A DNA stretch of 29,379 nt, taken from positions 1 through 29,379 of IMG/VR virus record IMGVR_UViG_3300029930_000010. One strand, written 5' to 3'. A model generated the notes under the pieces. That model was not told the origin of the DNA. It saw only the letters and a list, made by a program, of their open reading frames with translations, and searched no databases. A program made the position numbers and the translations under genes. Below are positions 17,039-23,356 of the stretch, one piece after another (within the stretch, counting starts at the first letter, position 1; each line of letters opens with the position of its first letter). This stretch comes from a virus (Duplodnaviria; Caudoviricetes).

Positions 17039-17121
17039 TGGTAGCGCCTCCTTACCGTCCCATCCATTTTTTCCCGTGTTTCCAGAACCTGTGTCCATTT
17101 GTTGCACTCTGGGCATTTCAT
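16927..17121 (-). CDS. NrdR N-terminal-like zinc-ribbon protein (stand-alone, no ATP cone)
   Basis: MKCPEC...VLETR...RRRYQCANLHRFTTEE closely follows the NrdR Zn-ribbon pattern. ATGA-coupled start. Confidence 0.75.
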   Translation of the reverse strand: MKCPECNKWTQVLETREKMDGTVRRRYQCANLHRFTTEEKPISAVGNVKILLDLPRKRQPKSED

Positions 17122-17300
17122 TTCATTAACTTGTTTTCATTCACCAAAGAACCGCAAGTTGGGCATTGACGCTTTGCCCCGCGATAACTTCTAAGCCGAT
17201 AGATGCTCTGACGCACGATGCCAAACTTTTCTGCGGCCTTGGCTATACTCATGCCTTTTTCTACTGCGTCAAGCGCCAATGCTGTTGCGGTTTTTTTCAT
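17118..17300 (-). CDS. Small HTH protein with C-terminal CxxC
   Basis: 'GMSIAKAAEKFGIVRQSIYR' HTH plus 'CPTCG'. Start uncertain (17300 or 17351). Confidence 0.7.
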   Translation of the reverse strand: MKKTATALALDAVEKGMSIAKAAEKFGIVRQSIYRLRSYRGAKRQCPTCGSLVNENKLMK

Positions 17301-17303
17301 GTT

Positions 17304-17330
17304 AAAAAAGGGGCTGGTTGTCCAGCCCCT
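17304..17330 (-). terminator. Rho-independent terminator after the SSB gene
   Basis: Minus strand reads AGGGGCTGG-ACAA-CCAGCCCCT followed by a T-run. Confidence 0.8.
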
Positions 17331-17337
17331 GTTAAGG

Positions 17338-17907
17338 TTAGTTCCAATCATCTCCAGCGGTAGCTGTTTCAGCCACGCGCTTGGTCACGCCAAATTCATC
17401 GTGCGCTGATTGACGAGTGCCGCCCAGAGGCTCACCCTTCTTCACAAGCTGCACATTGTTGAGGCCAAATGAAACCCCACGGTTTACACCTTGGTCGTAG
17501 GCATAGGCGTTCATGCTGACACGAATGTAGTCACCAGACACGATTGAGTCGGGGTCAAACAACTCAGAGCCAGACTTGTCAATGACAGTCGGCTTGTGCT
17601 TGATAGCCTCGCACTTTGTACTCAGATACCAATGACCCTTGAACTCATCACCCATTGCGGAGCCATCTTGCTTGGTGGCGGTATCGCCATCTTTAAGAGG
17701 GTTCTTCAAGCCCTTGGGAGCGTTGCCGTTCCACTTGGCTTGAATGGCAGCTTTAGCGGCTTCCTTGATGCCAGCGATTGTTTCTGAGTCCGATTTGGGG
17801 ATCAGAATCAAAACGCTGTACTCATTCTTACCGTTCAGCTTGTTGACCTCTGGAGCCATGATTCTGGCGTAAGAAGCGCGGACAGTTCCTGTGATTACTT
17901 TACTCAT
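17338..17907 (-). CDS. ssb: Single-stranded DNA-binding protein (DUF2815 / T7 gp2.5-like)
   Basis: 'VRASYA...YSVLILIPKSD', 'PLKDGD', 'SGDY.R.S...AY..G.NRGVSFGLNNVQLVKKGEPLGG', acidic aromatic C-terminus. Confidence 0.85.
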   Translation of the reverse strand: MSKVITGTVRASYARIMAPEVNKLNGKNEYSVLILIPKSDSETIAGIKEAAKAAIQAKWNGNAPKGLKNPLKDGDTATKQDGSAMGDEFKGHWYLSTKCEAIKHKPTVIDKSGSELFDPDSIVSGDYIRVSMNAYAYDQGVNRGVSFGLNNVQLVKKGEPLGGTRQSAHDEFGVTKRVAETATAGDDWN

Positions 17908-20206: not shown

Positions 20207-20462
20207 TTTCAAACACCTCATCAATTTTTGCGTTGAGTGCTTGAATCATCCTTGCATCGTTGTTGACGATAGTGACCAGTTCCCTGATCTTGGTTTCGAG
20301 GATGCCCTGCAAGAAGTACATACGCATGGGATCGTCTTTGGTGTAGTGGCGTGTCATTGCGTTACAGGTATCGATGATTTCTTGAGCGTTAAGCACTTTT
20401 TTCTCCGTTAAAAATTGTTCCTCAAGGCAGACTGTTTCATACCATTGCTGGTGACACATCAT
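20199..20462 (-). CDS. Hypothetical protein (87 aa; alternative GTG start at 20396)
   Basis: ATGA-coupled start at 20462. An internal TAACGGAG RBS precedes an in-frame GTG. Confidence 0.55.
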   Translation of the reverse strand: MMCHQQWYETVCLEEQFLTEKKVLNAQEIIDTCNAMTRHYTKDDPMRMYFLQGILETKIRELVTIVNNDARMIQALNAKIDEVFEND

Positions 20463-20581: not shown

Positions 20582-20607
20582 TCGTTTACTCCGTTAGTTG
20601 CGTTGAT

Positions 20608-20623
20608 GGGGGCTTGCGCCCCC
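20608..20623 (-). other. GC-rich GNRA-tetraloop hairpin between the first two early genes
   Basis: Minus strand reads GGGGGC-GCAA-GCCCCC with no U-tract. Confidence 0.6.
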
Positions 20624-20630
20624 GGTTGAG

Positions 20631-20924
20631 TTAAGCGGGGCAACCAGCCATCCACCAGCGGGCCACGGTAATAGCGCGAGCGCGATCTTCGCTGTTATCG
20701 AAAACGCAATCGCCACTCACAAAAACTTGATAGTTGCGGAGATCATCGCAATACTGCTCAACGATCACAACACGCTGACCAGCTTCGTTGGTCATGCGAC
20801 CGATGACGCGCTCACCTTGATCGGCGGGGTAATCAACTGCACCGACATCGCCACGATCAAAGCCGTCCCAGCGGCTGTTATCGGGCTGGCTTGCCAGATG
20901 TTCTTCGTATTGGTTTGTAAACAT
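20631..20924 (-). CDS. Hypothetical acidic early protein (97 aa), first gene of the leftward operon
   Basis: GGAG RBS, directly downstream of a near-consensus promoter. Confidence 0.7.
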   Translation of the reverse strand: MFTNQYEEHLASQPDNSRWDGFDRGDVGAVDYPADQGERVIGRMTNEAGQRVVIVEQYCDDLRNYQVFVSGDCVFDNSEDRARAITVARWWMAGCPA

Positions 20925-20961: not shown

Positions 20962-20989
20962 ATTGTATCAAGTTTGTGCTACCTGTCAA
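20962..20989 (-). promoter_or_regulatory. Near-consensus sigma70 promoter driving the leftward early operon
   Basis: TTGACA, 16-nt spacer, TACAAT with an extended TG. An A-rich UP-like tract lies upstream. Confidence 0.8.
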
Positions 20990-21067: not shown

Positions 21068-21076
21068 TGCTATGCT
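21068..21076 (+). promoter_or_regulatory. Possible extended -10 promoter (TG-C-TATGCT) for the leader RNA and primase operon
   Basis: TGnTAnnnT immediately before the structured leader. No clear -35. Confidence 0.45.
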
Positions 21077-21081
21077 TATGG

Positions 21082-21191
21082 GGCGCTTGGCAGCGTTTAG
21101 CAGTAGGTTCTGATCCCAGCCCTGCCGGAACTGCTCCGGTCTGCCAACTCCCAGCCGCTACTGGGGGAGGGCTGGGTTCAGAGCCTTTTTT
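21082..21191 (+). ncRNA. C4/CI-like structured RNA (three-way junction plus U-tract) with upstream complementary target sites
   Basis: Outer stem 21105-21123/21168-21186, inner hairpins 21124-21140 and 21148-21167. ACTGCT and CTGCCAA are complementary to upstream AGCAGT and TTGGCAG. Confidence 0.65.
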
Positions 21192-21205
21192 ACAAGGACA
21201 AAAAG

Positions 21206-23356
21206 ATGCAACAAGCAACAGCGGCTCTGTCGGTTGAGGTGGTCAGCCGGATAGCGAGCGCCTGCATTAACGCAAGGTTTTGCGGGTTCAAGACGGTGAT
21301 GGGGGACGATGGGCGCTGGAGGAAGATTCCACTCAAGCCCAACGGTCAGGCGGGGATAGGTAAGACTGATGCCGAATTTATCCCTTGGAACGGTTCACTT
21401 CCATCAGGCGCATCCCATTGGGGGATCGTCATGCAGCAGCCCACCTACGACACATTTAACCAGTTCGTGCTGACGGTACTGGATATTGATACCAAGAACT
21501 CATCTGCCCCGGAGGATGTGCGTCTGTCAAGGCTAGTGGGAGCCGCCAAGAAATACGGCTTTTTGGTCGAGGACAGTCATTCCGGCAAGGGCAAGCACAT
21601 CATTTTCCTCGCAGAACCCGATGACACCTTGCCCCCCAAGGTCTATGTTAATGAGGGTCAGGAAGTCGAGATATTCGGGCACAGCGCCAGCCACGGCAAG
21701 AGCGTGATGCTCACTGGCACGAACATTGTTGGCAACGTTTTAGAGCGTTCCGGCGTGAATGTCAGGGACTTGCTGATCGAGGCTGGCATCAACCCTGACG
21801 CAAAGCCGCCTAAGCAGGAAACAGAGCGCCCGGTAAGCCATTCTAAGATGCCCCAGAGCGCCTCGGACAACATGATTAGGGCTAGGGATGCCCTGCGCTT
21901 TATAACGCTCCAGAGGGGCGATTATGACCATTGGACGCAAATCGGCATGGCGTTGCAGGCTGAGTTTGGGGATGCCGGGTTTGCGATCTATGATGAATGG
22001 TCATCTACCCAGTACGACTATGAGGGGACTGATGCCCTATCCCGCAAGTGGAAGTCATTTGACGCTGGCGGCGGTATAGGCATCGGGACGCTGTTTCATG
22101 AAGCCAAGGAGCATGGCTGGCATCCACCCGCCAGAGCGCAGATTGAGCGCACCACGGCAGAGCAGGACTTTGCCAGCTTCATTGAGCGCAATGTTGACCT
22201 TGATACCGGCGAGATTCTGCCCGACAAGGCTGATGAGGTTGCCGAGGAATTGTTCTGGAAACCGAGGGATTTGGGGCTGGGGAACCCAAAGGGCATTAAC
22301 TACCTGCTTGGGGGCTTCTTGGCTGAATCCTTTGCGGTTATTTCCGGTCAGCCGGGTATCGGCAAGACAACGGCAATGGTTCCGCTGACCTTGGCGGCTG
22401 CTGGCTTTGATCTGGGTTGCATGACCACCAAGGAACCAAGGCACATCATTTATGTGTCCGAGGACGGGGATCAGGTTATCCGCATCTTGGAGGGCATTAC
22501 CCGGTTTGAGGATGTTGATGCCAAAAATGTTGCCGAGGTATTTCACCTGATTGACGCAAAGCGGGTTACAGCCATTGATTTGGTCAAGCTGGCTCAGAAT
22601 GTCGCCCTGTGGACTATTGATGGGGTTAAGCCTTGGGTGGTGCTGGACACCGCCAGCGCCACGATGCAGCTAGAAAATGAGAACAACAACAGCGAGATCA
22701 GCGGGTTTGTTTCGATGCTGAAAGAAACCATCTATACCCAGATGGGGGCTTCTGTTGCGATCATTACCCATCAGGCAAAGGCTGATGGACGCGGTAATGA
22801 GGACGCTACCGCTAGGGGTGGCAGCGCATGGGAGGGTGATGCCACGGTCACGGCAAGCCTCTTTATGGAGGGTGATGAGAGGTTTCTTAAGCTGCGGAAA
22901 ACCCGGTACGAACCTGACTTTAGGGAGATAAAGTTATCCACAAGGTCGGAGATTATTCCTGTTGTGGACAAGTTTGGCGAGATGCAGGACTTGAATTTGC
23001 TGTGGACAATTCCAGTTGAATCTGATGCCGATGTGCGAAAAATTGAGCGAATTGAGCGCGAAAAAGAGGTGAAGTCAGACCGCATGAAGGCGCTGATTGA
23101 TGAGGCTCATACGGGCTTTTTGGCGTATGTCAGGGGCTTCAAAAACCCGGTCATCAGGGTCGGCAAGGGTGGCAGTCATGTGCCACCGGAGGGGGCAACT
23201 TTGGTGTCAATTGGTGAGTATTTGGATCAGTCAGGGATAGCTGGGATACGCAAAACCGACACCAAGAGATCGGTGCAAACTGCCCTGCTGAAGATGCTTG
23301 GCGCTGATAAGTTACAGGGCTTCTTTCCAATGACCCCAAAGGGGACATTGGAGTGA
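21206..23356 (+). CDS. Primase-helicase (Prim-Pol/AEP-like N-terminus, PriCT-2, RecA-like AAA_25 helicase)
   Basis: 'VLDIDTK' and 'SHSGKGKHI' AEP motifs, 'DYDHWTQIGMAL...DEWS...KWKSF...IGTLFHEAKEHGW' PriCT-2, Walker A GQPGIGKT, 'VVLDT', 'IITHQAK', 'ARGGSAW'. Confidence 0.88.
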   Translation: MQQATAALSVEVVSRIASACINARFCGFKTVMGDDGRWRKIPLKPNGQAGIGKTDAEFIPWNGSLPSGASHWGIVMQQPTYDTFNQFVLTVLDIDTKNSSAPEDVRLSRLVGAAKKYGFLVEDSHSGKGKHIIFLAEPDDTLPPKVYVNEGQEVEIFGHSASHGKSVMLTGTNIVGNVLERSGVNVRDLLIEAGINPDAKPPKQETERPVSHSKMPQSASDNMIRARDALRFITLQRGDYDHWTQIGMALQAEFGDAGFAIYDEWSSTQYDYEGTDALSRKWKSFDAGGGIGIGTLFHEAKEHGWHPPARAQIERTTAEQDFASFIERNVDLDTGEILPDKADEVAEELFWKPRDLGLGNPKGINYLLGGFLAESFAVISGQPGIGKTTAMVPLTLAAAGFDLGCMTTKEPRHIIYVSEDGDQVIRILEGITRFEDVDAKNVAEVFHLIDAKRVTAIDLVKLAQNVALWTIDGVKPWVVLDTASATMQLENENNNSEISGFVSMLKETIYTQMGASVAIITHQAKADGRGNEDATARGGSAWEGDATVTASLFMEGDERFLKLRKTRYEPDFREIKLSTRSEIIPVVDKFGEMQDLNLLWTIPVESDADVRKIERIEREKEVKSDRMKALIDEAHTGFLAYVRGFKNPVIRVGKGGSHVPPEGATLVSIGEYLDQSGIAGIRKTDTKRSVQTALLKMLGADKLQGFFPMTPKGTLE

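Follow-up and report, generated by a model that had tools for sequence, protein, structure and literature searches.

A conserved leader RNA, likely related to C4, ahead of replication-initiator genes in tailed phages

The leader of the primase-helicase gene in a 29,379-nucleotide stretch of tailed-phage DNA (the window; IMG/VR record IMGVR_UViG_3300029930_000010, 83% complete) is a conserved, strongly covarying RNA element. Judged from its sequence, it likely works like the C4 and CI RNAs yet belongs to neither family. C4 and CI, the textbook examples of RNA immunity switches, are known from temperate phages and have separate target and antisense parts. We consider it fairly probable that the leader derives from the C4 family and acts as a self-regulating attenuator, in which pairing in cis would antiterminate and the terminated RNA would act in trans; the primase-helicase gene is the gene that it would gate. 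The features are listed below, with labels for the a and b sites that are our own, assigned by likeness to C4.

21068–21076, plus strand: predicted extended −10 promoter (TG, one base, TATGCT), seen in the sequence and missed by a consensus promoter scan.
21083–21096, plus strand: H1, the 5′ target hairpin presenting the b site, from the fold (99.4% of alignment cells paired; three of five pairs with a double change).
21087–21093, plus strand: b target site TTGGCAG, found upstream in related loci, with a compensatory variant in MW202462.1.
21099–21104, plus strand: a target site AGCAGT, which differs among phages and co-varies with the loop (23 loop variants).
21105–21123, plus strand: 5′ arm of outer stem P1, the predicted terminator stem, from the fold (15 of 17 counted pairs, in helices 3 and 4, with a double change).
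21124–21140, plus strand: a′ hairpin with the variable loop ACTGCT at 21130–21135, from the fold, sequence likeness to the C4 a′ hairpin and covariation.
21141–21147, plus strand: b′ junction strand CTGCCAA, from the fold and matching the C4 consensus.
21148–21167, plus strand: accessory hairpin P3, 3′ of b′, from the fold (three of four pairs with a double change).
21168–21186, plus strand: 3′ arm of outer stem P1, from the fold and alignment.
21186–21191, plus strand: U-tract of the predicted intrinsic terminator, six T in the sequence.
21194–21198, plus strand: Shine-Dalgarno-like AAGGA, seen in the sequence.
21206–23356, plus strand: primase-helicase gene, 716 aa (PHROG 3022 primase region, PriCT_2 and AAA_25 by domain search).

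The predicted fold of 21082–21205 consists of a small 5′ hairpin and then a three-way junction with a long closing stem and six T, reproducing the junction and T-run of the original prediction. Its energy is −58.7 kcal/mol (z −3.88), a stability equalled by none of 200 shuffles, and the minus strand of the leader folds worse, at −50.9 kcal/mol. The transcript would start at about 21082–21084, that is, with the first hairpin. The two complementarities that had been reported, TTGGCAG with CTGCCAA and AGCAGT with ACTGCT, are exact, lie at the positions given for them and run in the right antiparallel order; b/b′ and a/a′ nest, with a 5-base spacer on either side. Some details of the earlier description need adjusting. 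The small hairpin is present, with only four of the seven bases of TTGGCAG in its loop, where most of the site had been placed; ACTGCT, described as exposed, is correctly located and complementary, and its last T is paired in the predicted fold; and the outer stem is there, with one G-U pair and one T-T mismatch. In this fold a adjoins the base of outer stem P1, while a′ lies about 23 base pairs off, at the tip of its hairpin. The start codon of the primase is 20 bases past the first T of the U-tract. A simple terminator scan, which permits only 3–8-base loops, missed the stem before the U-tract.

Taken by itself, the complementarity in the window is only modestly above chance and suggestive only. 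Pairing of at least 13 bases in two blocks is reached by 76 of 58,350 genomic 23-mers in the window, by 41 of 20,000 mononucleotide shuffles and by 488 of 20,000 dinucleotide shuffles; the duplex energy of the two-block pairing is −18 kcal/mol, and the same segment pairs more strongly elsewhere in the window, at 15 or more places. A look-alike target at 20752–20770 was rejected; it is not conserved, and the gene that holds it is replaced in the metagenome relative L084. We regard the leader element as real because comparative data, rather than the single sequence, establish it.

With the primase as anchor, protein and alignment searches gave one near-identical leader, that of L084, and otherwise leaders of other types. 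The L084 primase is 98% identical and its leader near-identical to identical; its promoter flanks differ from those of the window with the −10 element kept, and its leftward gene is replaced. The exonuclease as anchor yielded no further elements. When GenBank phages were searched by BLAST with the window leader, just four weak, off-target matches came up, and three other leader variants gave none there, nor did one variant against plasmids. A first DNA pattern (a′ hairpin plus b′) matched 62 loci, nine of them with the window architecture and several of them canonical C4 RNAs. The refined pattern described the downstream half only and contained nothing of the upstream target. It matched 85 viral loci, and an upstream target hairpin with TTGGCAG was present in 67 of them; where the b′ word equals that of the window, 67 of 69 loci carry the upstream TTGGCAG. 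The remaining 18 of the 85 resemble coding noise or canonical C4. Together with the window, the 67 loci collapse to 38 distinct elements, and many of the loci are close relatives, so that the counts overstate independent events.

A looser pattern gave mostly noise, with at least four divergent members (L236, L254, L281 and L284) among the matches listed; L284 is without a clear U-tract. The GenBank member MW202462.1 (L379) was found via BLAST and not by pattern, with an equal match in MW202544.1. At this locus (L379:33654–33896) the opposite strand carries an annotated ‘hypothetical protein’ that overlies the RNA element, and the replication-protein ORF that follows is unannotated. The element occurs once per record in 18 of 18 records, with one weak second match. 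A covariance model, R1, scores members at 57–116 bits and canonical C4 at no more than 20 bits; its training set left out L284, the L379 type and several carriers, and L379 itself was not scored.

The compensatory change between a/a′ and b/b′ in homologous leaders that had been set beforehand as a test of the idea was found. There are 23 different a′ loops in the 38 elements, and each element's own a and a′ form at least five Watson–Crick pairs in 38 of 38 and at least six in 35 of 38. With the target end set by a fixed rule, cognate a/a′ combinations average 6.2 pairs and non-cognate ones 3.55, with 25 of 506 non-cognate combinations reaching six, and none of 100,000 permutations matched the observed sum. 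When the target ends were taken from the predicted fold, which cuts some sites short, the means were 5.6 and 3.3, again with 0 of 100,000. Two sets of elements with identical outer arms carry three and four different loops; a/a′ thus changes faster than the neighbouring stem. The search patterns held b′ fixed or nearly so. In MW202462.1, TTGGCGG is found with CCGCCAA, a double-sided b/b′ change that counts as one event.

For the structure as a whole we aligned 36 sequences, namely 33 of the 38 elements (five near-duplicates were left out) and three divergent members. Under the structure that we specified, 95.5% of cells are paired and 27 of 34 pairs show a double change, where the aligned sequences are related and pair changes are not counts of independent events. 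None of 500 shuffles reached the structure score, and slid controls were 35–49% paired. At least six T fall within 8 bases after outer stem P1 in all 38 elements, and a −10 hexamer lies 8–17 bases before the b site in 37 of the 38, at exactly 10 bases in 21.

The leader had been suggested to be an RNA wired directly to its primase. It does precede replication operons in general, and is not bound to this primase family: none of the 78 more distant primase homologs with upstream DNA has this element before it, 67 having a single hairpin there, nine an int-alpA type RNA and two something else. Across the members, an initiator-type gene lies within 1.3 kb downstream in 63 of 66 assessable loci, as counted by BLAST to 14 annotated representatives with three too-short loci set aside. 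The initiators are of DUF1376, Lin1244_N, DnaD-like and O-like types, with the primase-helicase in the window, and are mostly followed by primase or DnaB-like genes; the commonest context of the element is upstream of DUF1376/YdaU genes. The three exceptions have a methylase-helicase, a methyltransferase and an Ant antirepressor downstream. The last of these (L353:2975–3099, minus strand) is a member with a longer outer stem, followed by a 51-codon ORF and the antirepressor, an arrangement that echoes the gene order c4-icd-ant of phage P1, where Ant is the target of C4. Proteins of 65–79 aa are inserted between leader and initiator in many loci, for example L298:3086–3283, L318:2752–2967 (minus strand) and L320:2758–2967 (minus strand), and this family had no Pfam or PHROG match among those scanned.

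Like C4 (RF01695, clan CL00128; C4 and c4-a1b1 alignments are in the supplement of PMC2864571), the element has a three-way junction with an a′ loop and a b′ junction strand, its a′ stem and b′ strand agree with the Rfam consensus at almost every letter, a is variable and b conserved with bipartite complementarity to an upstream target, and one member precedes an Ant antirepressor. It differs from C4 in the order of its helices: all aligned members run P1, a′ hairpin, b′, accessory hairpin, P1′, and C4 runs P1, tetraloop hairpin, a′ hairpin, b′, P1′. In addition, the target is fused directly 5′ of outer stem P1, as against some 80 bases away in four canonical controls; a U-tract closes the RNA some 20 bases short of a start codon; the second downstream target that C4 has (a2/b2, at the ribosome-binding site of the controlled operon) is missing; and the element would gate replication initiators. 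A search with the Rfam C4, c4-2 and c4-a1b1 models had been proposed, and the leader matches none of them. The C4 model scores the four canonical controls at 55.8–71.2 bits and gave no match in the window (E ≤ 10), in eight members (E ≤ 0.05) or in twelve members (E ≤ 0.1). The original prediction of a C4/CI-like switch is largely supported; it holds for the core sequence kinship and the bipartite covariation, and not for membership in the C4, c4-2 or c4-a1b1 models.

Like c4-a1b1 (RF03163) and isrK (RF01394), the element presents TTGGCAG in the loop of a hairpin close to the transcript's 5′ end, with a variable site after it, and by the consensus lines H1 resembles the second hairpin of these families. 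They have two 5′ hairpins where ours has one, the first being missing, and there is here no separate terminator between the target and antisense parts; their models gave no match on members and matched the controls. Because the consensus a′ stem and b′ strand are shared, and the TTGGCAG loop is found in c4-a1b1/isrK, common descent with C4 is likely. The c4-2 (RF02944) and int-alpA (RF02996) motifs (PMC5737381) are also phage three-way-junction RNAs ahead of genes. The c4-2 model found nothing at E ≤ 10 in five records, four of them carriers (the window and three others), and the int-alpA model did not match the window element; int-alpA differs in that its loops match two downstream sites rather than upstream ones. 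None of the Rfam models detected the window or the 20 member loci scanned, a mir-1677 match being rejected as a generic long hairpin far below cut-off.

P4 CI RNA terminates transcription of replication genes via seqA and seqC (PMC4825925). The likeness to CI, in layout and context, lies in having antisense RNA and upstream target in one leader, in premature termination ahead of replication genes, which is predicted here, and in the position in a replication-operon leader (63 of 66 loci). CI has targets upstream and downstream, where our element has upstream ones only; the carriers here are 35–55 kb tailed phages mostly without integrase; and the primase has PriCT_2 and AAA_25. The alpha primase of P4 has a different domain make-up. 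Two candidates listed in PMC10690425, DNAVirus_4653 (124 nt, 43 sequences) and DNAVirus_187 (49 nt, 122 sequences), lie no more than 25 bases ahead of DUF1376/YdaU (and DUF4373) genes in tailed phages from IMG/VR. Both are marked there as not terminators, unlike what is predicted for our element, and the main text is silent on them. Compared by listed gene context only, they may be this motif or a part of it, left uninterpreted. Our literature search found no description of this one-piece arrangement; it lay outside the bulk of the subscription literature, the first studies of C4 and CI among it.

In the self-regulating attenuator that we favour, a and b of a new transcript would pair with a′ and b′, and the b/b′ helix, which encloses the 5′ arm of outer stem P1, would trap that arm of the terminator, such that the primase-helicase gene is read. 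Whatever occupies a and b would free outer stem P1 to form, leading to termination. Transcripts stopping at the U-tract would give an RNA of about 110 bases able to bind a and b of later transcripts in trans. The terminated RNA is the likely trans effector, because a′ and b′ are exposed in its fold and a is unable to reach a′ there. The outcome would be an early pulse of initiator and then shut-off, with exclusion of a second phage that has the same a site, the variable a/a′ pair setting specificity. That the leader is transcribed, that transcription ends at the multibranch stem, that the kinetic trap operates and that the RNA acts in trans are steps that we infer.

That cis pairing competes with the terminator, as was proposed, is a logic that prefix folding reproduces in all 38 elements, with a b/b′ probability of at least 0.77 just after b′ is made; in the window it is 0.91–0.97 at 21152–21160. 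Prefix folding is an equilibrium calculation and not a kinetic simulation. The full-length terminator fold is lower by 18–19 kcal/mol in the window and by 11.7–24.3 kcal/mol in members, and heuristic refolding barriers between the folds are 13–29 kcal/mol (findpath; upper bounds, with strand invasion ignored). The b/b′ probability in the window drops from 0.97 at 21156 to 0.22 at 21168, toward another non-terminator fold, with a weakening also noted over 21164–21172, and the terminator prevails from 21176. The window's alternative fold gives the 3′ arm a 6-pair hairpin ahead of the U-tract, and this small hairpin could cause termination anyway. Terminators topped by a three-way junction are atypical.

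The covariation fits cis and trans pairing alike. It and the prefix folding would be explained equally well by an attenuator working in cis only, where a/a′ and b/b′ form within one nascent transcript, transcription speed or a protein decides the outcome and the terminated RNA is a by-product. The protein might be an HTH or another early protein of the phage, or an RNA chaperone of the host; small HTH_3 proteins are found in 13 of 15 near-complete carriers, the window has its HTH at 17118–17351, and a protein might bind at the invariant b hairpin. We nevertheless hold this to be rather unlikely, given that the a/a′ letters switch among elements with identical outer arms, as a specificity determinant would, that a′ and b′ are still exposed in the terminated fold and that the known relatives act in trans.

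It seems improbable that the RNA follows the route of phages P1 and P4, in which RNase P or another nuclease would trim it to an ~87-base junction RNA (21105–21191) acting on a and b in trans, with termination indirect (Rho-dependent or at another site) or transcript stability altered, and the U-tract merely supplying the 3′ end of the RNA. According to PMC5320573, the a′ loop determines specificity in P1/P7 C4, and RNase P cleaves C4 where outer stem P1 has its 5′ foot, leaving ~77 nt; the window's outer stem P1 begins AGGT, containing the GGT reported there for C4, and with the single-stranded 5′ leader it resembles an RNase P substrate. Against this, the GGT/GGA start varies across members, the start codon only 20 bases past the U-tract leaves no untranslated stretch for Rho, and there is no downstream target.

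Translational control of the primase gene, or antisense action on other phage or host messages, appears very improbable. C4 does act at the ant ribosome-binding site (PMC12197685), and int-alpA leaders of related primases match sites beside their own start codons; the Shine-Dalgarno sequence here is, however, unpaired in both predicted folds, no second b+a site is found at a consistent place across the 38 elements (loci of 0.7–6 kb) or in the window, and the look-alike at 20752–20770 lies in a gene replaced in L084. That the leader adjoins the primase gene and has modest single-sequence statistics might suggest a DNA element (an origin or a primase single-strand initiation site) or chance, a prospect we consider negligible since G-U pairs are tolerated throughout, promoter spacing and U-tract are fixed on one strand, the initiators downstream are unrelated, the minus strand folds worse, and covariation excludes chance.

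One primase family is served by three different structured leaders. The int-alpA RNAs upstream of its homologs (L006:2883–2948, L007:2892–2957, L014, L020, and also L008–L011 and L015) pass the model cut-off in four of 17 loci scanned. Their variable loop complements two short sites that lie after the RNA and before the start codon, and across three variants the two sites change in step with the loop, which suggests that int-alpA may itself be a C4-like antisense switch at the translation start. At L012 and 66 other loci, a conserved leader about 90 bases before the primase start has a TAGAAT −10 box, an A-run, one strong hairpin and CAAC-containing repeats; it reads as a terminator on the opposite strand and has no Rfam match in those scanned. 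At L139:1941–2018 (minus strand) a sub-threshold int-alpA match (31 bits) precedes a member on the same strand by about 350 bases.

The genes of the window's record include podophage-type virion genes and a leftward block with an exonuclease, an SNF2-type helicase, an SSB and a 77-aa HTH protein at 17118–17351 (minus strand), which belongs to the leftward operon. The window had been said to hold no integrase or CI-like repressor; integrase and S24-type proteins are indeed absent among the 40 ORFs scanned, and the HTH protein qualifies the second part. A near-consensus leftward promoter (20962–20989, minus strand; 11/12, with TG) is present too; L084, whose first leftward gene is a different one, has a changed −35 there. 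A GC-rich hairpin between leftward genes (20607–20624) is the same in L084 despite differing genes on either side, and a common 11-base start-region repeat occurs at 20400, 20586 and 20930.

The carriers are 35–55 kb tailed phages, mostly without integrase. A tyrosine integrase is present in one of 45 carrier records and in one of the 15 that are at least 90% complete, and no S24 repressor peptidase, resolvase or ParA was found in 18 carrier records, including the 15 near-complete ones; the 52 annotated genes of MW202462.1 include no integrase, S24 repressor, resolvase or ParA. An HTH_3 protein is found in 15 of the 18 records (13 of the 15 near-complete), nine being over the cut-off; most of these proteins have fewer than 100 residues, and they often lie 2.5–4 kb from the element. 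The small HTH regulators in 13 of the 15 near-complete carriers weaken the case for control by RNA only, and because the carriers look non-integrating, a role in lysogen-type immunity is without direct support. Among the prokaryote genomes searched neither a host nor a prophage was found: R1 found no members in 151 genomes (25 candidates scored per genome), and the pattern occurred in 1 of 401 and 2 of 401, a rate that the reversed control equalled or exceeded, with matches that did not resemble members.

The finding bears on how phages without integrase, S24 repressor or ParA control replication. It is possible, on the doubtful side, that in a widespread group of such phages an RNA of ~110 bases serves as leader, terminator, antisense and its own target, and would keep a non-integrated carrier state or exclude superinfecting kin during lytic growth; the 6–7-base a/a′ code would then define about twenty immunity or incompatibility groups, in a module swapped before unrelated initiators. 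In this family target and antisense are compressed into one leader, predicted to be self-terminating, with its helices reordered, which means that the C4 fold tolerates permutation. Model R1 could seed an Rfam family, and the more than 20 natural a/a′ alleles form a panel for orthogonal RNA attenuators. Lying immediately upstream of replication initiators, in phages that would be classed as lytic by standard annotation, the element offers a testable answer to how such phages limit the expression of their replication genes or exclude their kin.
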